A DNA stretch of 20,000 bases, taken from the IMG/VR virus record IMGVR_UViG_3300042383_001692; one strand, given 5' to 3'. Shown piece by piece: positions 702 to 17,800 of this stretch. Every line of letters begins with the position of its first letter. Position 1 is the stretch's first letter. Made by a program: the position numbers and the translations under genes. Source of the stretch: an uncultured virus (IMG/VR IMGVR_UViG_3300042383_001692) (lineage: Duplodnaviria > Heunggongvirae > Uroviricota > Caudoviricetes). The notes under the pieces were generated by a model, which was given only the letters and a program-made list of their open reading frames with translations, did no database searches and was not told the origin of the DNA.

Positions 702-1415
702 TCAGGGAAGCGCAATGCCTTCGCGCAGCCACGCGGCTGTGTTGGGCATGAACTTGTTGAAGATTTCAAAAATTTCGTTGGCGTACATTCGAATTTCGTA
801 TTGCGCGTCTTTCTGCATGCGCAGATCCAGGAAATGCATCAGGTTGTGCGCGTCGATGGTGCAGATGGCCTGATACATCATGGCAAATCCGGGCAGAAAC
901 AGGCGAGCTTGCTCCTTGGCCGCCTCTTTGTCCAGTGCAAACCGGTAGTTTCGCATGGCGGCCTGCTGTGCGTCATCCCATAATTGATTGAGCTCCTGCT
1001 CTGTTTCGTCGTCGACGTAGCCGTCCGATCCCTGCTTGCTGGACTTGCTCTGCAGTCGCCAAAACATTGGGTCCCAGACCTGCGTCTCGTCAAACTCAAC
1101 GTAGCGACCGGACTGAAAGTTGAACGACCAAGTGCGGTGCCGCACCCATTGCCACCACACCACTACGGGTGCAGTAATGCGAAACTTGAAGATCACGTGC
1201 TCAAACGGGCTGGTGTGCCTGTGTTTGAGCAGGTACTTCAGCAGCTTGAGATCGGCTTCTTCCCCCTTGCTTTCGCCGAGGTAGGAGACGCGCGCAGCGT
1301 TGACGACAGCAGTCTCCGGCCACACATTGGTGGATGGATGCGGCATAACGTCAATCAGCTGAACATATTCGCCTGGCTTGGGTTCGAGTTCCTTGATGAG
1401 ATGTTTGTATTCCAT
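702..1415 (-). CDS. thyX: flavin-dependent thymidylate synthase ThyX
   Basis: Signature RHRxxSxxxxSxR (RHRTWSFNFQSGRY), plus AARVSY, HTSPFEH, AKEQARLFLP and LRMQKDAQYEIR. Start taken at ATG 1415 (MEYKHLI). Confidence 0.96.
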   Translation of the reverse strand: MEYKHLIKELEPKPGEYVQLIDVMPHPSTNVWPETAVVNAARVSYLGESKGEEADLKLLKYLLKHRHTSPFEHVIFKFRITAPVVVWWQWVRHRTWSFNFQSGRYVEFDETQVWDPMFWRLQSKSSKQGSDGYVDDETEQELNQLWDDAQQAAMRNYRFALDKEAAKEQARLFLPGFAMMYQAICTIDAHNLMHFLDLRMQKDAQYEIRMYANEIFEIFNKFMPNTAAWLREGIALP

Positions 1416-1418
1416 TGT

Positions 1419-1446
1419 AAAAAAGAAAGAGGGGCCGCACCCCCTC
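1419..1446 (-). terminator. intrinsic terminator-like hairpin just upstream of thyX
   Basis: Minus strand GAGGGG-TGCGG-CCCCTC followed by TTTCTTTTTT. Confidence 0.6.
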
Positions 1447-1539
1447 AGTTTCACCCTTCGACAAGCCAGCAAGTGCCGTCACTTTGCAAGCCGCCTGTAT
1501 TCAGTTGTTCGTCTTCACCGATCTGTGCGGTCACGGCTA

Positions 1540-2779: not shown

Positions 2780-3049
2780 CTATATGTTTTCGTTCAGGGC
2801 TTCCGCCACTTCAGACCAGCTGATGTCCCGCTTGCAGACTTTGGTTCCATCTGGAGTTTCCGCTTTGCCAAAGCATTGCTCGAGAATAACAGTGGCAGTG
2901 CGCCTGGCAGTTGCAGGCCCCCACTTTGTGCCGTGATTCCTGCGAATTTCGGCACGACGAGACACAATGCCATACGCATTCTCGTCGTTGTGCAGCCACA
3001 GCACGATGTTCCAGGTGTTGTAGTTCTTGTATCCGTTGTATTCAGTCAT
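2780..3049 (-). CDS. conserved phage hypothetical protein (YNGxxNYxTWNxxLWxxND type)
   Basis: N-terminal YNGYKNYNTWNIVLWLHNDE motif is recurrent in small phage proteins. GGAGG SD; ATGA overlap with the upstream gene. Confidence 0.75.
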   Translation of the reverse strand: MTEYNGYKNYNTWNIVLWLHNDENAYGIVSRRAEIRRNHGTKWGPATARRTATVILEQCFGKAETPDGTKVCKRDISWSEVAEALNENI

Positions 3050-3420
3050 TTTGCCTCCATGGCTTCTGAGCGAAACAGAACGGGAGTGTCACGATCTTCG
3101 CATTCATACTGCATTAGCGCAAGGACGTTCCAGGCTACGGCGGCTAGATGATCCTCATCCGTTTCTCCGCGGCGATACGCCTCCAGATGCCTCATGGCGC
3201 TGGCAAGCATCTGTTGAGAAGGAATTCCTTTCTGCCAGTTGTTTTCACCATACTTCTGAGCACCACGCGCATACAGCATGGCTACGCGCCACAACGCATG
3301 AGGAGGAATTAGATCAAATCTTGGTTTGTTCACGTCAGTGTCCCGGACAGCGCCAGTCTCAAAAGACCGGCGCTCTCCTGAATCCTTTGTTTCAAAAAAC
3401 AAGTGAGTAAATTTACTCAT
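3046..3420 (-). CDS. dATP/dGTP diphosphohydrolase-like protein (DUF5664 family)
   Basis: FETGAVRD...KPRFDLIP...GAQKYGENNWQKG...SAMRHL...EDHLAAVAWN is characteristic of this phage family. Confidence 0.9.
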   Translation of the reverse strand: MSKFTHLFFETKDSGERRSFETGAVRDTDVNKPRFDLIPPHALWRVAMLYARGAQKYGENNWQKGIPSQQMLASAMRHLEAYRRGETDEDHLAAVAWNVLALMQYECEDRDTPVLFRSEAMEAK

Positions 3421-3421
3421 T

Positions 3422-3982
3422 TCATTGAGTATTTGGAAAACGCGCAATTCCGGCAACGGTCGTATTTGGTCCTTCGTTGCTGTTCAGATACCGAAGGTCA
3501 AGAATTTCCATGCCGTCAAAAAACACATCTTCCATCGTGTCTTTTGTGAATCTCCAGTAGTCTTTTGGGTATGCGTGATACCGAAATCCGTAAGAAGGAG
3601 AAGTGATGATCAGAAGCTGATTACGGAGCGAATATTCGTTGATTCCACGATCTTCCGCAACCTGACGAGCGTTCCATAACGCGTATTTTGCGGAAGAAAC
3701 AACGTCAATCGGATATTTGACGTGTTCAAGACATTCGCAGATAACAAACGTATCTGCAGGATTTTTCATGGATTCGACGATTTGAAAGTAATCAAAATGA
3801 TCTTCATCGACGACTACGTCCACGTCGCGGCCTGCTTTGATGTCTACGCCAATCCATTGTGCATGGTGAATGGCCTGACGCGCTGACCCGTTGACGTTCA
3901 TGGACCCGATTTCGATTACGTTTCTATTTTTACCGATCAGATTTTCCATCGATCGGAGGTAGTTGAGAATTTCCGGCGTCAT
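3422..3982 (-). CDS. class I SAM-dependent methyltransferase
   Basis: VIEIGSMNVNGS (motif I variant), IGVDIKAGRDVDVV, ECLEHV, LIITSP and YHAYPKDYWRFT. Confidence 0.85.
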   Translation of the reverse strand: MTPEILNYLRSMENLIGKNRNVIEIGSMNVNGSARQAIHHAQWIGVDIKAGRDVDVVVDEDHFDYFQIVESMKNPADTFVICECLEHVKYPIDVVSSAKYALWNARQVAEDRGINEYSLRNQLLIITSPSYGFRYHAYPKDYWRFTKDTMEDVFFDGMEILDLRYLNSNEGPNTTVAGIARFPNTQ

Positions 3983-7126: not shown

Positions 7127-7145
7127 CTCATGCGGCCGTCAGGCC
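7127..7145 (-). promoter_or_regulatory. TGAC-loop hairpin motif, copy upstream of the AAA/VWA operon
   Basis: GGCC-TGAC-GGCC-GCATGAG, one of 11 copies in the window. Confidence 0.7.
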
Positions 7146-9786: not shown

Positions 9787-9820
9787 TCCGGGTTTTGTTG
9801 ACGCGGACCCGGAAACCGCG
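9787..9820 (-). ncRNA. H-type pseudoknot motif after a stop codon
   Basis: CGCGG-UU-UCCGGGU-CCGCG-UCAACAAA-ACCCGGA. Confidence 0.7.
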
Positions 9821-9825
9821 AGAAA

Positions 9826-10281
9826 CTAGAACGGAATGTCCTTGTCGAGAACGTCTTCGCGGGCAACAGAAGTCTCTTCCTTCTTCTGCTCTTCGCCCCA
9901 CTTGGCCAGCTCAAAGACCATCGGCTTGCTGTCAGGATCGTTGCGATCGCAGCGAATCCACTTGCCGGTGTCGTCCTGCTTTGCCGTAAACGGATTCAGC
10001 CACAGGCTGCCGCTCTTGTCGGGATTCAGCAGCCCGTAGACGGACGCCTTGGCCTTGAGGCCGCGGACTTCGCCGGTCTCCTCGTTCTCGATGCGCTCCC
10101 ACTTGAAGTTGTCTGCAAACCCGATCGGAACGGTAAGAGCCGCACTGAATTTCAGTTTGAACGTCACCACGCCGTCGGCCTGCGTGTAGGCCTGCCACGA
10201 CTGCGCGCGCAGGACCTCGCGCTTGCCGTCCTTGGTGCGAACATTGTTTCGATACAGCGTCACATTGTGTCGATTGCTCAT
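9826..10281 (-). CDS. beta-rich protein with an SSB-like acidic C-terminal tail (possible second SSB)
   Basis: AGGAGG SD; ends ...EDVLDKDIPF. Confidence 0.75.
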   Translation of the reverse strand: MSNRHNVTLYRNNVRTKDGKREVLRAQSWQAYTQADGVVTFKLKFSAALTVPIGFADNFKWERIENEETGEVRGLKAKASVYGLLNPDKSGSLWLNPFTAKQDDTGKWIRCDRNDPDSKPMVFELAKWGEEQKKEETSVAREDVLDKDIPF

Positions 10282-10337
10282 AAAAAACTACCTCCTGAAC
10301 TCTAATCACCATATGAACGAGCACGCGCCCGTTCACT

Positions 10338-10357
10338 CCTATACGCGCGTCAGCGCG
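10338..10357 (-). promoter_or_regulatory. TGAC-loop hairpin motif abutting a hammerhead
   Basis: CGCGC-TGAC-GCGCG-TATAGGAG (variant tail). Confidence 0.7.
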
Positions 10358-10421
10358 GTCTCCTCAGCGCAGGCATCACCTGCGGATCATCGGGGAGAAG
10401 AATCTCCCCTAGATTTCGACC
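10357..10421 (-). ncRNA. hammerhead ribozyme, type II (HH-A)
   Basis: GGUC-GAAA-UC UA GGGGAGA UUCU UCUCCCC GAU GA-UC^-CGCAGG UGAUG CCUGCG-CUGAGGA-GACC. Predicted cleavage after AUC, between 10385 and 10384. Confidence 0.92.
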
Positions 10422-10466
10422 TGGTTAATGGCGTCGGCATGCTTGCGCACACCGACGCCGACAAAA

Positions 10467-10658
10467 CTACCGCCAGCGCAGCTCTTCGAGGTCGTCCGAC
10501 CCCCAGAAACTGAGCTGACCACTGTTCCCCCCGAGCTTCTCGATGATCTTCCGTGCGAGTTCTTCGGCGTCCCAGTCGTAGTTCACGACCGTGACGTCGA
10601 TTTCCTCTTCGTTGAAGCTCCAATCAAACGACACTCGCGGATCCTTCTTCTTGCCCAT
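10467..10658 (-). CDS. small acidic hypothetical protein (63 aa)
   Basis: AGGAGG SD with ATG. Confidence 0.7.
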   Translation of the reverse strand: MGKKKDPRVSFDWSFNEEEIDVTVVNYDWDAEELARKIIEKLGGNSGQLSFWGSDDLEELRWR

Positions 10659-10670
10659 GTTTTTTGCCTC

Positions 10671-10880
10671 CTACCTGCAACTGCGCGTCCATCCATGCTC
10701 CGTGCGCGCATACACGGTTTCCTGGTGCATGGTTCTCAAATTACGAACGACGATTTCGCTGATTCGATCGTCATGCTGATAAAACGAAAGAAGGGCTCGA
10801 TACTCCTCGAGCCCTTCTGAACTGACGGTCACCACGTTCAGGCGACCGTCAGTTTGGAAGCGAAGTTCAATGACGTTCAT
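10671..10880 (-). CDS. hypothetical protein (69 aa)
   Basis: ATG 10880 (MNVIELRF); its GAGGAG SD is supplied by the hairpin motif. Confidence 0.7.
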   Translation of the reverse strand: MNVIELRFQTDGRLNVVTVSSEGLEEYRALLSFYQHDDRISEIVVRNLRTMHQETVYARTEHGWTRSCR

Positions 10881-10887
10881 TTTTCTC

Positions 10888-10907
10888 CTCATACGGCCGT
10901 CAGGCCG
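10888..10907 (-). promoter_or_regulatory. TGAC-loop hairpin motif (the loop TGA is the hicB stop codon)
   Basis: CGGCC-TGAC-GGCCG-TATGAG-GAG. Confidence 0.75.
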
Positions 10908-11118
10908 CGGGAACTGGAACCTCCATTCCCGCATCCAATGCCACTTCGATCCACAAGCGCATGGCATCCTCGATCATGGCGCCGACTTCCTCGAAGGTAT
11001 CCGCCTCAGTCGCGCAACCCGGCAATTCGCGAACGCGCGCGAACCACACCGGATGATCTCCGGAGAGATCCTGGGTCACTTCGATGGTGTAGGGAAGGTT
11101 CATATAGTGGTCTACCAT
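10900..11118 (-). CDS. hicB: HicB-like antitoxin, N-terminal domain only, orphan
   Basis: YMNLPYTIEV...WFARVRELPGCATEADTFEEVGAMIEDAMRLWIEVALDAGMEVPVP is a typical HicB. GAGGA SD. Confidence 0.88.
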   Translation of the reverse strand: MVDHYMNLPYTIEVTQDLSGDHPVWFARVRELPGCATEADTFEEVGAMIEDAMRLWIEVALDAGMEVPVPAA

Positions 11119-11130
11119 TTTTATCCTCAA

Positions 11131-11322
11131 CTAATCGCCGAGTTCCGCAATCTTGCGATCCACCAGAGCGCGGAAACTCTGGTTGTCGTAGCGGATTTCT
11201 CCGCTTTCGAGCGCCTTGTCGAACGCCTGAATGGCGCCCTTGAGGCCTTCGACGCCGGCGTTCACATCGCCGGCACGCGCAACTTCCATTGCTCGTTCGA
11301 CCATTCTTACAAACTTGTGCAT
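11131..11322 (-). CDS. small helical hypothetical protein (63 aa)
   Basis: GGAG SD with ATG; not HicA-like. Confidence 0.65.
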   Translation of the reverse strand: MHKFVRMVERAMEVARAGDVNAGVEGLKGAIQAFDKALESGEIRYDNQSFRALVDRKIAELGD

Positions 11323-11429
11323 TTTTTTACTCCAAAAAAAGACTCCGGTTTTGATAGAGAACCGGCAAACTCCGGGGTTTATGGCTATGCCCCCCTAACC
11401 GCACAGCGGGTTAAAACGGATAGAAGCAC

Positions 11430-11473
11430 AACCCTGTCAGGGAATCGAACCCTGATAAATCGCCAGACAGGGC
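11430..11473 (-). ncRNA. minimal tRNA-like structure (acceptor stem + T-arm)
   Basis: GCCCUGU-CUGGCGAUUUAU-CAGGG-UUCGAUU-CCCUG-ACAGGGU-U, with exact 7-bp + 5-bp geometry. Confidence 0.7.
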
Positions 11474-11519
11474 AATCTTCGTCCTACCGCATAGCTTGCA
11501 ATTCAAGTGAGGATTGCTC

Positions 11520-11539
11520 CTCATGCGACCGTCAGGTCG
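11520..11539 (-). promoter_or_regulatory. TGAC-loop hairpin motif
   Basis: CGACC-TGAC-GGTCG-CATGAG-GAG. Confidence 0.75.
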
Positions 11540-11660
11540 AATGCGCCTTGGCTCCGGAGATTCGACGTGGTCATCTCCAAACCAGAGTTGCGGCGCTTCT
11601 GTTGTCATCCGCGAGGGAAATAGTCCCGCATTTCTGCTGGTCCACTCTATTTCCATTACT

Positions 11661-11725
11661 GGTCTCGTCAGCACCCGCATTACGGGTGGATCATCGGGGA
11701 GCTTTCGCTCCCCTAGATTTCGACC
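11661..11725 (-). ncRNA. hammerhead ribozyme, type II (HH-B)
   Basis: GGUC-GAAA-UC UA GGGGAGC GAAA GCUCCCC GAU GA-UC^-CACCCG UAAUG CGGGUG-CUGACGA-GACC. Predicted cleavage between 11689 and 11688. Confidence 0.93.
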
Positions 11726-11734
11726 TTATGGGGA

Positions 11735-12031
11735 TCAGAACGGGATTTCCCCGTCCTGATCCTTCTCCTTTCCCTGCCAATACTTCTCGATTTCGGAATC
11801 GAGAAGGTTGGCAAGGAACATTGCCACGCGGAGTTCGTCGTCGCCCTGCTCGCGCGCAAGACGCACGAGCTCTTCGGTGATCTTGCAATCACCGAAATTC
11901 TCTAAATTGGTGACAAACTGATCGAGTTCGTCACTGATTTGGAGATATCCTCCAATCACGTTTGCGTCGTGCCACGCCGCCGTCAATTGAATGACGGCGA
12001 ACATGACTGCTTGGAAATTGTTGTCGTTCAT
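11735..12031 (-). CDS. hypothetical protein (98 aa) with an SSB-like tail
   Basis: ATG 12031 (MNDNNFQ) after GAGGAG; ends KDQDGEIPF. Confidence 0.75.
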   Translation of the reverse strand: MNDNNFQAVMFAVIQLTAAWHDANVIGGYLQISDELDQFVTNLENFGDCKITEELVRLAREQGDDELRVAMFLANLLDSEIEKYWQGKEKDQDGEIPF

Positions 12032-12038
12032 GATTCTC

Positions 12039-12058
12039 CTCATACGCCCGTCAGGGCG
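12039..12058 (-). promoter_or_regulatory. TGAC-loop hairpin motif
   Basis: CGCCC-TGAC-GGGCG-TATGAG-GAG. Confidence 0.75.
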
Positions 12059-12080
12059 TTTTTGCCAACAAAACCCCACT

Positions 12081-12141
12081 GGTCTCATCAGTGTGCGCAT
12101 CACGCACAGACCCCTTGCATCGCACGCAAGGGATTTCGACC
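12081..12141 (-). ncRNA. hammerhead ribozyme, type II (HH-C)
   Basis: GGUC-GAAA-UCCCUUGC GUGCGAU GCAAGGGG-UC^-UGUGCG UGAUG CGCACA-CUGAUGA-GACC. Predicted cleavage after GUC, between 12109 and 12108. Confidence 0.95.
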
Positions 12142-12150
12142 TGTCTCGGC

Positions 12151-12495
12151 CTAGGAAATGACTTCCCAGACCGAGAATTCAAACGACGCAGAAGAAATTT
12201 CTGCGTCACTGTATTCCGCAACGCCTTCGCGTCGCGGCAAACCGCGAACCGACATGACCACGAGCTTGTCGTTCAGCCCAAGCTTGACCATCGGCGCCTT
12301 CGCTGGCACTTCGACCATCAGGCCGAAGCGCCTCTGCATTGCGATGATCGTTGCGCCATGCGAGGGGTTCAACGCCGGGATGACCCCAGCGTTGACCAGT
12401 TCGCGGACGGCCTCGACCGTGACGATCTTGCGGGTGACCGTCACGTCACCCGCAAACATGCCGTCGGCGACGGCAAAGCTAAAGTAAGTGCTCAT
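12151..12495 (-). CDS. probable DUF1874 / AcrIII-1-like ring nuclease (STIV B116-like), divergent
   Basis: 114 aa. YFSFAVADGMF / ALNPSHGAT (His46) / VKLGLNDKLVV / LPRREGVAEYSDAEI / FEFSVWEV follow the order and spacing of the B116-family blocks as recalled (NAFS.NM / AIGH..T / V.L..GD..(I/L)V / RL.EG.VL...EI / FY.V). GGAGG SD. Confidence 0.68.
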   Translation of the reverse strand: MSTYFSFAVADGMFAGDVTVTRKIVTVEAVRELVNAGVIPALNPSHGATIIAMQRRFGLMVEVPAKAPMVKLGLNDKLVVMSVRGLPRREGVAEYSDAEISSASFEFSVWEVIS

Positions 12496-12533
12496 TTTGC
12501 CTCCAAAAGAACTACTGCACACAAGACTCTACT

Positions 12534-12592
12534 GGTCTCATCAGCACACGCATCACGTGTGTATACCCCTTAGCTAGAGGGGTATTTCGACC
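12534..12592 (-). ncRNA. hammerhead ribozyme, type II (HH-D)
   Basis: GGUC-GAAA-UACCCCU CUAGCUA AGGGGUA-UA^-CACACG UGAUG CGUGUG-CUGAUGA-GACC. Predicted cleavage after AUA, between 12562 and 12561. Confidence 0.95.
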
Positions 12593-12594
12593 TG

Positions 12595-12940
12595 GACTCA
12601 CTACTGATTAGCTAGATCAATAGTGAGTCACAGCACAAGATTTCGGCTTGTGCACACCGAACGCGCACGACCGGTCCACCGGCATCTCATTGCGCGCTCC
12701 ACTACATTTCAACGCATTGCTTGTATTTGCAACTACAAACAACGCATTGAAATGCGCTCTTGCTTCCTGGTGCAAGAGAACCATCTCTCAACCAACACTG
12801 ACTCGCGGCCTCGCAAAGCAATCCCGAACGGATTGAGTCTCTGCTTTGCGACCGGGTCTCGCGGGCGACCCTGAACTGCCCGAGCACTTGCTCAGACGAT
12901 CCGCGAAACCGGATGAGAGCTACGACGCAGCCCTCAGCCA
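12595..12940 (-). ncRNA. large structured non-coding RNA of unknown class (~350 nt)
   Basis: About ten consecutive hairpins, including a 21-bp stem (12705-12754) whose plus-strand C/A mismatches are all G-U pairs on the minus strand. No convincing ORF with an SD. Confidence 0.75.
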
Positions 12941-12945
12941 AAACT

Positions 12946-13021
12946 CTCATACGCACGTCAGTGCTTTCGCACGGACACTGCGTATGCGGAACTCAAGAGC
13001 TCCTCATACGCACGTCAGTGC
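12946..13021 (-). promoter_or_regulatory. two tandem TGAC-loop hairpin motifs (12946-12964, 13003-13021)
   Basis: Both read GCAC-TGAC-GTGC-GTATGAG and lie immediately upstream of the ncRNA. Confidence 0.75.
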
Positions 13022-13044
13022 TTTACACTAACTGAGAACTCACT

Positions 13045-13105
13045 GGTCTCATCAGTGCACGCTTTACGTGCAGATCTCCCGCATCGCACGCGGGAGATTT
13101 CGACC
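13045..13105 (-). ncRNA. hammerhead ribozyme, type II (HH-E)
   Basis: GGUC-GAAA-UCUCCCGC GUGCGAU GCGGGAGA-UC^-UGCACG UAAAG CGUGCA-CUGAUGA-GACC. Predicted cleavage between 13073 and 13072. The first G is shared with the upstream TAG stop. Confidence 0.95.
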
Positions 13106-13302
13106 TACAAAGAAACGATGATCAGGCCGAGGTTGCCTCCGCAGACGAACTCGGTCTTGAGCCCTCCGAGCTCAAAGAGGACTTGCTGGGCAAGGGCGTC
13201 TTCGCCCTCGCGCAGATGCCACACGACATTCCCTCGATCTCCGTAGTCAAGGGCGTCCATCACGCCCTCGACCGTCTGCCACTTCACCTTGTTCTCGTTC
13301 AT
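13105..13302 (-). CDS. hypothetical protein (65 aa)
   Basis: AAGGAG SD; ATG 13302 (MNENKVKW). Confidence 0.7.
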   Translation of the reverse strand: MNENKVKWQTVEGVMDALDYGDRGNVVWHLREGEDALAQQVLFELGGLKTEFVCGGNLGLIIVSL

Positions 13303-13369
13303 AACACTCCTTCGGGAAAGCTCTGCGGCCTCCCATATGCGAACAATTAAGAGAGCACACAAGCTTCTC

Positions 13370-13447
13370 CTCATACGCACGTCAGTGCTTTCGCACTACA
13401 CATGCGTATCAGGAGGAAGCAAAATGCTCTCATACGCCCGTCAGGGC
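13370..13447 (-). promoter_or_regulatory. two TGAC-loop hairpin motifs (13370-13388, 13429-13447)
   Basis: GCAC-TGAC-GTGC-GTATGAG and GCCC-TGAC-GGGC-GTATGAG. Confidence 0.75.
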
Positions 13448-13551
13448 AGAGTCTCCACTCGAGACTCGCTCTGTTATGTATCACCTCCCTAACCGTTGCT
13501 GTTAGGCGAAGGAAGGGAGGTGAATACGACATCCTGTGAACCGAAAGGGTA

Positions 13552-14079
13552 TCACCGGATGGGAACCCACTCGAGGGTGACATTGTCACGCTCGGTGAGT
13601 TCGGCCGAGTTTAGGGCGAGAACCCGGCAAGCCAGCTGGGTGGCCTTCTGCTGCCAGAGCTGGACCTCCTCGTAGAAGAAGGTCTGGCGTCTGGTGAGCG
13701 GCTTGCCCTGGACCAGGCGCCGCTCGATGTCGCGCTGGGTGGACTCCCGGAGGCGCGAACCATCCATGGGGCGCCACGCCGCGATCTGGCCGGCGTAGGC
13801 CCATTCTCGCATTTTGGGGTCCGGCTTGACCCCGTGGCGCTTCGCGTATTCTGCGAAGGCCTGCGATACCGCCTCAGGGCGGATGAATATATCCCTGCGC
13901 ACATCGTCCTTGCGCACAGGAATATTCACGAACCGACCGTGGTTGACCACGGCGGCTCGGTGCCCGGGAGGAGGTTTGCCGAAGTTCTCCTCCGTTGCGG
14001 AAGGCTTGGCCGCGCTCGGCACGGCTGCCCTCCGGGTCGTGGTGGGCGCTCCACGACCAAAAGCTGGTTTCTCGTTCAT
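13552..14079 (-). CDS. basic hypothetical protein (~175 aa)
   Basis: Start taken at ATG 14079 (MNEKPAFG). The upstream extension in the ORF track runs through hairpins and a T-tract. Confidence 0.7.
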   Translation of the reverse strand: MNEKPAFGRGAPTTTRRAAVPSAAKPSATEENFGKPPPGHRAAVVNHGRFVNIPVRKDDVRRDIFIRPEAVSQAFAEYAKRHGVKPDPKMREWAYAGQIAAWRPMDGSRLRESTQRDIERRLVQGKPLTRRQTFFYEEVQLWQQKATQLACRVLALNSAELTERDNVTLEWVPIR

Positions 14080-14176
14080 GCTCGCCCCCTTCGGGCGCTC
14101 GGCCCCTAGGGGGGCCTCGCCCCCTTCGGGGGCTTCGCCCCATGAAATAAAAAGCCTCGCATTGCTGCGAAGCTTA

Positions 14177-14249
14177 CTCATACGCGCGTCAGCGCGCAGA
14201 AGAGAAAGACGGGATTCCCCGTTCTTCTCCTCATACGCGCGTCAGCGCG
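14177..14249 (-). promoter_or_regulatory. two TGAC-loop hairpin motifs (14177-14196, 14230-14249)
   Basis: Both read CGCGC-TGAC-GCGCG-TATGAG. They are the first copies downstream of the polymerase gene. Confidence 0.75.
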
Positions 14250-14395
14250 CATAGGGAGACACTCAGTTGCGGCTACCCTTCCGAGTCGTCGCGCTGCTGG
14301 GCATCCAGCCGCGCCGGTCCGGACATCCGAAGGCGGACGCCCGAGTAAATCGTTTGCCCGTACGGATGCGCCTGAGCAAGGGCAGGCATTCGTAG

Positions 14396-14430
14396 AAAAA
14401 TAAAAAAGAGGGCGGTCATAGACCACCCTC
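14396..14430 (-). terminator. intrinsic terminator of the WYL-polymerase operon
   Basis: GAGGGTGGTC-TAT-GACCGCCCTC-TTTTTTATTTTT. Confidence 0.8.
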
Positions 14431-14475
14431 CACTGGAGCAGGAGATGATTCCAGTCACCTCCTGCCCGCTACACA

Positions 14476-17277
14476 CTACATCACGTCCGTTTCGATCACG
14501 CCGTCATCGGCGCTGGCGTAGTCGAAACCGCCGTCATCCGCCCACTCCGGCTCCGGAGTGTCTCCGTCCAGCGAAATCTCGAAGAACTCGGCCATCACTC
14601 TCCCCGTAAAGGTGATTTCCACGCTCTTCATCCCGGGAACGGTAGCGAGTTTGACGTGGTACATTCCCGTCGGAACAACCGCGCCAACCATGCCATGCGT
14701 CTGTCCGTCGCCCACGCGAACAGACAGCGGATACTTTGGCGTTTTTGCGCTTGTATCAACGACTTCGACAACCGTATACACGGTGTCGCTGTCCATATAC
14801 TTAGCGCGGAATTCCATGCCGCCCATGATCTTGCCGATCATGCCGGCCCCCACTGCGCGTCTCTCGGCAATGCTGTCCTTTCGGGCAATCAGCATCCGCG
14901 CGACTACTTCCGGAAGTGCAAACTTCATTGCAAATCCGGCGTTGTCGCCGCGAGAGAACGCAGCCCACAGCGCGCTGGCGGCAGATTCCAGCCACGCCGT
15001 GTTCTCGTTCTCCTTGCCAAGATTCATCTCGACCGCCTTGTCGCGCCAAACCTTTCGATAGCCTTCGAAAAGCTCAGCGCGCAGCATGTCGGCCATTTCC
15101 AACGCGATCTTCTTTGCCTTAAGATCGTTGGCAATGTCGCCCATGCGCTTATACAAGCGGTCGACCGCCCAGTTTGCCCACTTAAAGCCCTCTCCCGGGA
15201 TCTCCTCAATCCACCCGGCAAAGAACTTGTTGTCCAGCGTGGACAACTGGATGAGTGGCACCTCATCCTCGTGGGCGCGGATAAACGCCGCCAGCGGCAT
15301 CAGCTCCTCGTCAGGAGCGTCCACCTGACTGAAGAACCTGCTGGGCAGGATCGGCTGTCCTGGCTCCACCACCGGCCGGCCGTTAGCGTCTCCAAAGAAG
15401 CGCGCGGTCTCCACCGCTGCGTCCTCCGCCGTGCCCGCAAAGAGGGTGAACGGCTTAATGTTCTTCCTCTTCTGGAGCTGGCGGTAAGCGTGCATGGAAA
15501 GAGTAATGCCATACTCCTCCTGCGCCTCCTTGGAGAGTTTGCGGACAAGCTTCATGTCCGCAGTGGCAGCCTTCTTGACGCTGTCCACCGCCTTCTGAAG
15601 CTCGACCCGCAACGCGTCGATTCTTTCGGTCGCCAAAGCCTTGGCGTGCGCCACCATGCGCTCTATGACGACCCATTTCTGATTGACGTAGTCAATCAGG
15701 CCGATGCCGGCGGCCATTGACTGCGCAATCATCTTGCTACGATTGGTCGGCGGAACCGCCTTCTGCCGCAGCTTCTCTTCGCTAATCGGCAGTCCCTCGA
15801 CCGTCTTACGCATCTCGACCACGACCTCGTCAGGTCGCAGGATGGCAAAGGCGTCGCCATCGAAATCGAGAGCCGCACGATTCATCGTGCGTTCGTTGAC
15901 CCACGCCTCGTACCACCGCACACGTGGGTCAGCGTGTACGATGACTGCGACCATTTCATTCCGGTGGGCAAACGGGTACCGGATGGCCACAGTCTTAACG
16001 CCGTCTCGGCCTGTCTTTCCAAACAGGTGCTGGAACACCTTTGGATTGACAGCGACGACGTTGTCGCCCAAGCTTCTGTTGCAGACCGCGCGGAATCTCC
16101 ACGCGTAGATTCCCAGACCTGCCAGGATCTGGTAACCCACAGTGGCGACCCACTCGGTCAGCGCGGCAACCATCATTTTGCTGCGCATCAGCCGCGTGTC
16201 GCCGATAGCGACGCACACAGCTGCAAACAGCCTGATGATGTCGAACTGCTGGAGGTTTCCCTCCTCGTCTCGCAGCGACGTGCCCCGGCCGGCCAGCCAG
16301 CGCACGTCGCTGAGACGCTCTCGCAGTTCGCCCAGCTTTGCCGATACGAGGTCGTGCGCCTTGTTCACGACTTCGCTCGACATCCACTGGGTCACCTGTG
16401 GACCGATCAGCATGGGGCCGGCCAGGTCCTCGTCACCATTGACGATGCCGAACCCCATCATCACCTCGTGCACGCCGTCCGGAAGCACAATGCCCTTGTT
16501 GTGCTTGAGCGTGCCCCTGGGCATTACCAGGTCCACCCCGTCCGGCAGCCGAGCCGGAATCAGGGTGCCTTTGCCCAGGATCCACTTGGACGAGTCCTCA
16601 TTGTCCAAGTGGAGGATCGCGCGGAACTGCGGGTCGTTCTCAAACACGACCTTGTGCTGCGCAGCCCACGCGCGATCAATCAACCCCTGGCCGTCGCCGA
16701 TGCGGGTAAAGCCAGGATCGTCATCCTTGCATACCAGCACCCGGGCGGTCACGTGAAAGTAACCACCCCGCAGGGGCGTATGCAGCGCTCCAGGGCGCAC
16801 GGCGTCTCCCGCGTCCGGGAACATCGCCTCCATGCGCTTGGCCCAGTAAAAGTCCACCACCGGGAGCACTGCATTATTTGACTTGGCGGCCTGCGTCATG
16901 TACCGCAGCCAGCCGCATTTGCGCTCATCCGAGGGGCGGACCGGCCAGTCCACCTCAGGGATGTCGATGCCCCTGTCCTGAATGATGTCGAGGGCGAGAG
17001 TGGAGATCTCTTCCTCATCGGCATCAATGAGACTTGGGGCCAACTGTACGCCCGCGATGAGAGCGCCTTCCTCGCGGGCAATGCATGAAGCGTAGTCCCG
17101 GCGCACCCACCGGTATCCGCTTGGCTTGAGCGGACCCGGCTTGGCGTTGGACAAGCCCATGCGCTTGAGAACTGGCCAGTTGGTCACCAGCTCTCCGTTG
17201 CGTCCCTTCATCACCGGGACGACCACGAATACGTCGTGGATCGTCAAGGTGACGATAGGGACTTCGAACATCTTCAT
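14476..17277 (-). CDS. single-subunit two-barrel (DPBB) RNA polymerase, YonO / cellular RdRP-like (~933 aa)
   Basis: Ordered motifs GDGQGLI, PQFR...GKG, MPRGTLK, IRYP, catalytic DFDGD (15853-15867), IGLI and QKAVDSVKK match the conserved blocks of QDE-1-type RdRPs and phage YonO. GGAGG upstream of ATG 17277. Confidence 0.88.
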   Translation of the reverse strand: MKMFEVPIVTLTIHDVFVVVPVMKGRNGELVTNWPVLKRMGLSNAKPGPLKPSGYRWVRRDYASCIAREEGALIAGVQLAPSLIDADEEEISTLALDIIQDRGIDIPEVDWPVRPSDERKCGWLRYMTQAAKSNNAVLPVVDFYWAKRMEAMFPDAGDAVRPGALHTPLRGGYFHVTARVLVCKDDDPGFTRIGDGQGLIDRAWAAQHKVVFENDPQFRAILHLDNEDSSKWILGKGTLIPARLPDGVDLVMPRGTLKHNKGIVLPDGVHEVMMGFGIVNGDEDLAGPMLIGPQVTQWMSSEVVNKAHDLVSAKLGELRERLSDVRWLAGRGTSLRDEEGNLQQFDIIRLFAAVCVAIGDTRLMRSKMMVAALTEWVATVGYQILAGLGIYAWRFRAVCNRSLGDNVVAVNPKVFQHLFGKTGRDGVKTVAIRYPFAHRNEMVAVIVHADPRVRWYEAWVNERTMNRAALDFDGDAFAILRPDEVVVEMRKTVEGLPISEEKLRQKAVPPTNRSKMIAQSMAAGIGLIDYVNQKWVVIERMVAHAKALATERIDALRVELQKAVDSVKKAATADMKLVRKLSKEAQEEYGITLSMHAYRQLQKRKNIKPFTLFAGTAEDAAVETARFFGDANGRPVVEPGQPILPSRFFSQVDAPDEELMPLAAFIRAHEDEVPLIQLSTLDNKFFAGWIEEIPGEGFKWANWAVDRLYKRMGDIANDLKAKKIALEMADMLRAELFEGYRKVWRDKAVEMNLGKENENTAWLESAASALWAAFSRGDNAGFAMKFALPEVVARMLIARKDSIAERRAVGAGMIGKIMGGMEFRAKYMDSDTVYTVVEVVDTSAKTPKYPLSVRVGDGQTHGMVGAVVPTGMYHVKLATVPGMKSVEITFTGRVMAEFFEISLDGDTPEPEWADDGGFDYASADDGVIETDVM

Positions 17278-17293
17278 TTGCCTGCCGGACCTC

Positions 17294-17800
17294 CTAAGCC
17301 GGCTTCCATTGAAGAATTCGCGCCACCACGAACGTGCGATCTTCATTGCGCAGGTGGCAGCGCGCAATGAGACCGAGTTCAGACCAGGACAGAGGGGTGA
17401 CGACCCGCTCTGTCACCTCGCCTCGAATCCGCCCGTCATAGCGGATCCAGAGCTTGGCTCCGGTCTTCATGGCCTCGCTCGCGGCCATGGTGAACTCAAC
17501 GTTGTCCGTGTGGACCACCTGCGAGCGCAGGTTGGCGGGGCAGTCCGGTCCGTACACCGGCACGCCCTGCGCGGCCATCCAGGCTGCGACCTTGGCCGGG
17601 TTGGCAGCCCGGTCATAGTCGCGGCGTGAATCGCCACGCATCCACACGCGGGTGCCGTTCGTCGGGAACTCCACGGCCAGCACCCCGAGCGCCGTGAGCT
17701 CCTGCCACGTCTTCAACCGACTAGACGCGTCGGTTGGGCTGAACAGTGGCTCGTTCAGCCGAAGAATTGCCCGCAGTTTTGACGGCAAAACAACCGTCAT
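17294..17800 (-). CDS. WYL-domain protein (168 aa)
   Basis: C-terminal AMKTGAKLWIRY...ERVVTP...LIARCHLRNEDRTFVVARI is a WYL domain. AAGGAGG SD before ATG 17800. Confidence 0.85.
   Translation of the reverse strand: MTVVLPSKLRAILRLNEPLFSPTDASSRLKTWQELTALGVLAVEFPTNGTRVWMRGDSRRDYDRAANPAKVAAWMAAQGVPVYGPDCPANLRSQVVHTDNVEFTMAASEAMKTGAKLWIRYDGRIRGEVTERVVTPLSWSELGLIARCHLRNEDRTFVVARILQWKPA

Follow-up and report, generated by a model that had tools for sequence, protein, structure and literature searches.

Five type II hammerhead motifs bracketing small cassettes in an uncultured freshwater phage, and their probable role in transcript processing

The layout in which hammerhead ribozymes flank single phage genes has been known since 2011 (Perreault et al., PMC3088659). 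According to the accessible part of that report, such arrays cleave in vitro and in E. coli, processing into single-gene mRNAs was proposed, and circular or spliced products were considered, which the authors "were unable to detect". Type II hammerheads near phage-like genes have also been found to cleave in vivo in Desulfovibrio vulgaris, where, as described in the available portion of the study, their ends were captured by cyPhyRNA-seq and two copies lie about 310 nucleotides (nt) apart (PMC8782182). Here we describe a 20,000-nt stretch of DNA from an uncultured virus of the Caudoviricetes (IMG/VR record IMGVR_UViG_3300042383_001692; hereafter the window, meaning this whole stretch), the minus strand of which carries five type II hammerhead motifs, all in the sense of the genes.

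In several respects the locus resembles the clustered hammerheads of prophages (PMC3088659, as far as its accessible text goes; reviewed by de la Pena, 2017, PMC6155905): several type II copies stand in one orientation, a few hundred nucleotides apart, and bracket small non-conserved genes. Unlike the clusters of 2011, it holds five hammerheads in a row in an uncultured freshwater phage, next to a polymerase-like protein with a DFDGD motif. The bounded units include one structured non-coding RNA, their interiors are structured to an extraordinary degree, and a near-identical relative displays the gain or loss of a cassette together with a hybrid stem II. New here are the hammerhead-marked cassette boundaries that vary between near-identical phages and the hybrid stem II footprint in that relative, the metagenome contig L001. 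The proximity of type II hammerheads to phage-like genes is shared with D. vulgaris; in contrast to that case, with its ends captured from cells, the present one is known from DNA sequence alone.

Two further groups of self-cleaving RNAs bear on the locus, as an earlier note on this DNA had labelled its units retrozyme- or viroid-like. In retrozymes (PMC7761336, PMC7229834), tandem hammerheads likewise release a unit of a few hundred nucleotides with joinable ends, which is closed by RtcB or tRNA ligase. However, retrozymes (long terminal repeat (LTR) elements in plants, non-LTR elements in metazoans) are repeats of one non-coding sequence with type III or type I hammerheads, reside in eukaryotic genomes and spread via reverse transcription, whereas the unit interiors of the window are unrelated to one another, two of them (U2 and U3 below) are protein-coding, the hammerheads are of type II, and none of the 29 minus-strand open reading frames (ORFs) scanned matched a Pfam reverse-transcriptase family. 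Avsunviroidae and viroid-like circular RNAs share with the window the hammerhead self-cleavage of unit-length and highly structured RNAs of 250-500 nt. Such RNAs, however, are covalently closed genomes that lack a DNA stage; their ribozymes occur in both polarities, and their hammerhead is hidden in the circle by alternative folds, whereas the units of the window are encoded in DNA (DNA runs from 14 studies), carry ribozymes of one polarity and have hammerhead stems that form stable local hairpins. On these grounds the label was abandoned.

We consider it probable, at roughly 65%, that the five hammerheads mediate the self-processing of a long transcript into linear, hairpin-capped and highly structured RNAs, while doubling as joints between cassettes.

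Motifs, cores and folds of the five hammerheads

Both strands of the window were searched with the pattern GGTCGAAA-N30-60-CTGANGAGACC. This gave five matches, all on the minus strand, while none was obtained in 200 dinucleotide shuffles (0/200); a looser pattern, in which the outer positions of stem II were left unspecified, returned the same five motifs only, on either strand, with 0.14 expected. The five hammerheads are as follows.

Hammerhead A, 13105-13045, minus strand: type II; predicted cut after C at 13073; found by pattern, parser and fold
Hammerhead B, 12592-12534, minus strand: type II; predicted cut after A at 12562; found by pattern, parser and fold
Hammerhead C, 12141-12081, minus strand: type II; predicted cut after C at 12109; found by pattern, parser and fold
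Hammerhead D, 11725-11661, minus strand: type II, stem III with an internal loop; predicted cut after C at 11689; found by pattern, parser and fold
Hammerhead E, 10421-10357, minus strand: type II, stem III of the same type as in D; predicted cut after C at 10385; found by pattern, parser and fold

The parser found the catalytic core to be complete in all five (CUGANGA, GAAA, the A15.1-U16.1 pair, and an H17 other than G), H17 being C, A, C, C and C in A to E at 13073, 12562, 12109, 11689 and 10385, respectively. Stem I is in each case a hairpin of 6 base pairs (bp) with a 5-nt loop, and stem III is a hairpin throughout, with the internal loop in D and E. As the earlier note had stated, the open stem II is GGUC/GACC in every copy, and the parser returned 4/4 pairs for each. 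When the hammerheads were folded alone, the minimum-energy structure was the canonical three-stem shape in 5/5, with stems I and III closed by loops and stem II open; with native flanks of 150 nt, the predicted probability of the hammerheads ranged from 0.00 to 0.63.

A profile search with the neighbouring polymerase-like protein identified two related metagenome contigs, L001 (98% identical polymerase, five hammerheads) and L002 (47% identical, three hammerheads). Across the ten distinct hammerheads of the window, L001 and L002, all 60 of 60 stem I cells were Watson-Crick, with at least two pair types at five of the six positions. Stem III of A carries a compensatory change relative to its copy in L001, and in L002 a stem II with full compensation, AGGC/GCCU, is present, as well as one copy with a G-U at 10.1/11.1. 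Within the window, C is 80% identical to A and E is 79% identical to D.

Units between the cuts and the structure of their RNAs

The predicted cuts divide the transcript strand into units of 511 (U1), 453 (U2), 420 (U3) and 1304 nt (U4), listed below together with the gene that precedes hammerhead A. The limits of the first three (13072/12562, 12561/12109 and 12108/11689) and their sizes agree exactly with those put forward in the earlier note.

Gene of 65 amino acids (aa) upstream of hammerhead A, 13105..13302, minus strand: its stop TAG overlaps the first G of stem II
U1, 12562..13072, minus strand: 511 nt, non-coding, highly structured; the hairpin-UAUGAG motif occurs twice, beside a long variable hairpin
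U2, 12109..12561, minus strand: 453 nt; one gene, ATG at 12495 to stop at 12151, 114 aa
U3, 11689..12108, minus strand: 420 nt; one gene, ATG at 12031 to stop at 11735, 98 aa, behind a hairpin-UAUGAGGAG motif
U4, 10385..11688, minus strand: 1304 nt; tRNA-like minihelix, terminator-like hairpin and four small genes, one of them HicB-like

U2 and U3 thus hold one small gene each, of no assigned family, and the product of the U2 gene had no match in Pfam or PHROG. U1 is 86% identical to L001 7909-8362 over an aligned stretch that includes both flanking hammerheads, and is taken to be a non-coding RNA because it has no ORF in common with this counterpart and the indels between the two are not multiples of three. 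In both L001 and the X4 contig, the long hairpin at its centre gives way to another long hairpin, which keeps the structure but swaps the sequence. The hammerheads sit tightly between genes, with stop codons 0-10 nt before stem II and Shine-Dalgarno sequences 12-40 nt after; in two cases the first G of stem II, like the conserved A, belongs to the stop TAG itself. The direct repeats comprise the hammerheads and the hairpin-UAUGAG motif only, and the unit interiors are unrelated.

Against dinucleotide shuffles, the folding z-scores of the interiors were -8.4 to -12.8 for U1, -8.5 to -11.1 for U2, and -10.0 and -13.7 for U3. Across the unit interiors as a whole (11726-13044, minus strand, two of them protein-coding), two runs gave z-scores of about -10 and of -11 to -14, respectively; in the first, other 400-nt segments of the window ranged from +0.4 to -7.7. 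The polymerase gene gave z = -4 to -7, and the AAA, SSB and 9826-10281 genes were near 0. Furthermore, folding was much stronger in the sense than in the antisense strand: the two strands of U1 had minimum free energies of -215 and -164 kcal/mol, with 28 and 2 G-U pairs, respectively. Because the interior z-scores are exceptional and the sense strand folds the better of the two, the unit RNAs thus appear to have been selected for structure as RNA, whether circular or linear.

Under the favoured self-processing reading, the hammerheads would cleave themselves during transcription of an operon that holds small accessory genes of a freshwater phage. A long minus-strand transcript would be cut into linear RNAs, namely a non-coding one of 511 nt, two of 453 and 420 nt with one gene each, and one of 1304 nt with four genes. 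Because the hammerheads are of type II, both ends of each product would bear hairpins: the 5'-OH would lie directly on the 6-bp stem I hairpin, and at the 3' end the stem III hairpin would be followed by a single unpaired base with a 2',3'-cyclic phosphate. In bacterial RNA decay, hairpin-capped ends are poor substrates for the 5'-end-dependent RNases E and J, for 3' exonucleases and for poly(A) polymerase. The capped ends would resist end-dependent RNases and poly(A) addition, so that each cassette could have its own stability and translation. The same hammerheads would serve, at the DNA level, as short conserved joints for the gain, loss and swap of cassettes between related phages.

A second recurrent element accompanies the array. 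Eleven copies, all in gene orientation, were found of a motif that starts with a hairpin of 4-6 bp, looped by UGAC, and continues with (G/C)(U/C)AU and mostly GAGGAG, against 0.1 expected.

Hairpin-UAUGAG copies, minus strand: 13006-13017, 12949-12960, 12042-12053, 11523-11534, 10891-10902 and 10341-10352
Further hairpin-UAUGAG copies, minus strand: 14233-14244, 14180-14191, 13432-13443, 13373-13384 and 7130-7141

Its stems covary (GCGC, GCAC, GCCC, GACC, GGCC), and a copy follows four of the five hammerheads. Nine copies occur in L001 and none in the rest of the 251 loci compared, L002 having a variant whose loop is UGCC; scanning IMG/VR for the hairpin-UAUGAGGA motif yielded five single matches and no relatives. 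The motif could serve as a promoter for the phage polymerase, as a boxB-like hairpin that binds a protein, or as a leader in translation.

Several points weigh against the self-processing reading. The sequence itself shows the motifs with their cleavage geometry and compensated conservation, the cassette differences and a strong structure of the sense strand; cleavage in vivo, the existence of a long precursor and the protection by capped ends we infer, the last from what is generally known of bacterial RNA decay. The sequencing runs found to hold this DNA included no RNA run; the DNA runs are freshwater or lake metagenomes, and one run labelled 'RNA? (probably DNA)' (X20) covers 11022-11318 only and is thus uninformative on circles. 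No sigma-70-like promoter was found in 9800-14700, and if the 11 copies of the hairpin-UAUGAG motif are promoters, many RNAs would start inside the units instead of being excised from one precursor. As regards the ribozymes themselves, the Rfam family RF02276 (Hammerhead_II) gave full-length matches to A (21.5 bits) and B (23.7 bits) in 91-nt scans, below the gathering score of 37. In its consensus, stem II spans 2 bp and stem III is shorter than in the hammerheads of the window. Short-window Rfam scans covered A and B (91 nt) as well as C and D (501 nt), and E was covered in larger scans only; C and D were not listed as Hammerhead_II in the 501-nt scan, and the hammerheads went unreported in the scans of the 20-kb and 4.1-kb stretches. 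Moreover, inspection of the five hammerheads by eye found no Watson-Crick pseudoknot of at least four pairs from loop I to the 3' tail, an element that the accessible text of Perreault et al. (2011, PMC3088659) ascribes to most type II hammerheads. Among type II hammerheads with the loop I sequence UGAUG (IMG/VR loci L127-L250), an A stands just 5' of stem II in 78/78 and a purine just 3' of it in 73/78, which suggests that these residues may cap the stem II, of exactly 4 bp, in a non-canonical manner, replacing the usual pseudoknot between loop I and tail.

Cassette differences between relatives and the sharing of stem II

Compared with the window, L001 has an extra cassette of 330 nt with an 83-aa ORF, located between the counterparts of hammerhead A and U1; its protein gave a weak match only, which is probably spurious. 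On either side of the cassette stands an identical segment of 27 nt, made up of stem I and the core. The hammerhead before it reads GGUC...GGCC, with one G-U, and the hammerhead after it GGCC...GACC, with one A-C mismatch, whereas the two ends of the cassette itself pair into a perfect GGCC/GGCC stem, and taking the cassette out restores the GGUC/GACC of the window. GGCC/GGCC is the second commonest stem II type among the viral hammerheads sampled (see below), and the hybrid halves would be the footprint expected of crossovers inside two hammerheads if the donor stem II was GGCC/GGCC.

Other relatives differ at comparable places. Contigs of the sequencing run X12 diverge from the window exactly at 12081, the 3' edge of hammerhead C; in the X2 contig, U1 is joined to a different, C-like hammerhead at the position of A; and the long X4 contig has about 386 letters between its matching parts, of which one ends at 12943 and the next begins at 13048, where the window has about 105. 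The HicB-like gene (10900-11130, minus strand) is absent from the X4 and X12 contigs, which skip from 10923/10928 to 11132/11129, and its counterpart in L001 (9806-10105) has the hairpin-UAUGAG motif on both sides. With boundaries that differ between near-identical phages, the hammerheads appear to act as cassette joints at the DNA level.

These differences would also be expected if the hammerheads were mainly cassette linkers, with homologous recombination between co-infecting phages swapping accessory modules, the array-wide stem II keeping hybrid hammerheads functional, and cleavage being each cassette's own processing signal. This reading is compatible with the favoured one, and besides the bracketed L001 cassette, the X12 and X2 junctions and the missing HicB-like gene, a concordance of stem II within arrays above chance speaks for it. 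We nevertheless hold it only tentatively and think it somewhat improbable that linking is the principal role, since there is one clean hybrid footprint only, from a single cassette, and recombination at any conserved intergenic element would look alike. In addition, a screen of 252 sequences (the window and L001-L251) for hammerhead-bounded insertions gave one event, the edges of which lay outside the hammerheads; this screen is insensitive, as it missed the difference between the window and L001.

Hammerheads with GGUC/GACC were found in at least 124 IMG/VR stretches, with up to five matches per locus and a median spacing of 386-519 nt. The variety of stem II was assessed in a sample selected on stem I and loop I alone, so that stem II was free to vary. 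Among its 82 distinct hammerheads, 23 had GGUC/GACC, 22 GGCC/GGCC and 8 GGAC/GUCC, the other 29 being spread over 13 combinations, and stem II was fully paired in 78. With independent draws, an identical stem II in five of five copies, as in the window, would therefore not be expected, but hammerheads of the same genome are no such draws. Neighbours shared stem II in 25 of 48 pairs, compared with 7.7 +/- 2.3 when partners were shuffled (maximum 17 in 2000 shuffles); even neighbours with strongly diverged stems I and III shared it in 13 of 25 pairs, vs 0.16 for random pairs from different loci. Meanwhile, native stems are kept more strictly (83/96 fully paired) than the chimeric stems that would form between the ends of a unit: the chimeric stem was imperfect in 24 of the 68 neighbour pairs having two perfect native stems, showing that cross-compatibility is not general, and the ends of the first unit of L002 (GCCU with GGUU) pair poorly. 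Common descent with slow change of a 4-bp helix in which a single mismatch is costly, compatibility in DNA recombination, or selection for chimeric hammerheads can each account for the sharing above chance, and the data do not separate these.

A bolder version would regard the array as a mobile cassette system, in which units leave one phage genome and enter another at a resident hammerhead by way of an intermediate circle with one complete hammerhead, the stem II common to an array keeping each hybrid ribozyme functional. Such a circle might be of RNA, made by reverse cleavage or RtcB, or of DNA, arising when neighbouring hammerheads recombine. The L001 cassette would then be the footprint of one entry, with its own ends forming the perfect GGCC/GGCC stem and both flanking hammerheads hybrid. 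We judge this to be quite improbable.

Prospects for circular RNAs and the neighbouring polymerase-like protein

The earlier note had proposed that the released units could circularise, and the geometry on which it relied was borne out. Because only stem II joins the two products of a type II hammerhead, and stem II is shared, the two ends of a unit would rebuild a complete hammerhead; each unit's ends carry both halves, including the conserved A 5' and the purine 3' of stem II. Units might in this way be closed by reverse hammerhead cleavage or a host RtcB-type ligase, yielding exonuclease-proof circular mRNAs (U2, U3) or a circular non-coding RNA (U1). In chemical terms, circles at a low level are plausible, by analogy with engineered expression of circular RNAs flanked by hammerhead or hairpin ribozymes in E. 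coli, in which 5'-OH and cyclic phosphate ends can likewise be rejoined (PMC11592204; review PMC4344496); the accessible text of the former quotes efficiencies of 6.7-9.5% for engineered hammerheads on RNAs of 83-103 nt. In contrast to those circles, the ends of the units of the window would be held by the 4-bp stem II only.

Further features are in keeping with closure. The cost of end pairing in the linear units is predicted to be just 0.1-2.2 kcal/mol, the units are structured as strongly as viroid-like RNAs, the L001 cassette has perfectly matched ends while the contiguous hammerheads beside it carry G-U and A-C, and neighbours share stem II above chance even when stems I and III have diverged. 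Other points speak against closure. The rejoined junction would be a complete hammerhead again and should be re-cut, its stem I and III hairpins being strong and local (an alternative fold that hides it was not searched for), and the shared stem II is equally explicable by descent or by DNA recombination, with cross-compatibility failing in many neighbour pairs and in the first unit of L002. Nearest-neighbour folding gave probabilities of the chimeric stem II of 0.57, 0.03 and 0.89 in linear U1, U2 and U3, no better than the 0.00-0.99 of interior-shuffled controls (12 per unit), and probabilities of the junction hammerhead of 0.015, 0.001 and 0.107 in the circular folds. As such folding cannot discriminate on the question of circles, it was given no weight either way. 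Precedent is also unfavourable: circular or spliced products went undetected from three such arrays, according to the part of Perreault et al. (2011, PMC3088659) available, and the literature covered, with subscription journals outside the coverage, yielded no report of circular RNAs from phage or bacterial hammerhead arrays. Linear products, moreover, are already hairpin-capped at both ends. No match to the RtcB family (PF01139) was found in the Pfam scan of the 29 ORFs of the window. Taking both sides together, we regard circle formation at a biologically meaningful level as unlikely.

As a separate matter, rolling-circle translation was considered, U2 (453 nt) and U3 (420 nt) being multiples of three, and rejected, as their ORFs end in stop codons and leave no endless frame.

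The gene upstream of the array (14476-17367, minus strand) encodes a protein of 963 aa and is followed by a strong terminator. The DFDGD motif is invariant in its 11 homologues, all metagenomic, with 45-95% identity, and in a language-model feature search the protein scored 0.95-0.96 against clusters named RNA-dependent RNA polymerase (RdRP) or carrying PF05183. No sequence match was found in Pfam, PHROG or PDB, Pfam being empty even at E <= 10 for 11 family members, and the AlphaFold model was unusable (mean pLDDT 56, catalytic region below 50). Judged by these sequence features, the protein is probably a divergent single-chain two-barrel RNA polymerase, and the label 'RdRP-like' fits as a lead.

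It had further been speculated that this polymerase might copy the units, which would make them RNA replicons or templates in a viroid-like RNA life cycle launched from phage DNA. The resemblance to an RdRP stood, in the DFDGD motif and the likeness to RdRP-named clusters, but nothing suggests RNA-templated copying. The hammerheads have one polarity; because none lies on the plus strand, antisense multimers would be unable to self-process. YonO, the characterised phage protein of this kind, is titled a DNA-dependent RNA polymerase (PMC5467207, as far as its accessible part goes), the 11 family members lack a Pfam RdRP match, the structural model lends no help, and the unit sequences are present in DNA runs. 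Such a life cycle therefore seems to us very improbable.

The remainder of the window is of phage type, with genes for ThyX, SSB, a dATP/dGTP diphosphohydrolase domain, an AAA ATPase, HicB-like and WYL proteins, and a tRNA-Arg. No relative was found among GenBank phages, by DNA or by the polymerase protein, and an IMG/VR search by the polymerase gave no relatives either. The dATP/dGTP diphosphohydrolase N-terminal domain (PF18909, E 5.6e-27; 3046-3456, minus strand) lies near ThyX (702-1472, minus strand), which hints at remodelling of the nucleotide pool and possibly at a modified base in the phage DNA. Within U4, at 11431-11473 (minus strand), a tRNA-like minihelix was seen that has a 7-bp acceptor stem and a T arm (GGUUCGAUUCC) without D or anticodon arms. 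It gave a weak mascRNA-menRNA match of 18 bits, was not called by ARAGORN and is conserved in L001; it may be a processing signal for RNase P or RNase Z.

The role of hammerheads in phages has been a question since 2011, and the window offers a clean and rich case, with five ribozymes, one bounded non-coding RNA and very strong sense-strand structure. Its variants in freshwater metagenomes differ by whole hammerhead-bounded cassettes. Were the units to form circles, which is unlikely on present evidence, they would include the first natural ribozyme-made circular mRNA in a bacterial virus. The hybrid footprint, together with the excess of stem II sharing, provides a statistic for whether the cross-compatibility of neighbouring hammerheads is selected, be it for circles, for splicing or for the exchange of DNA cassettes.

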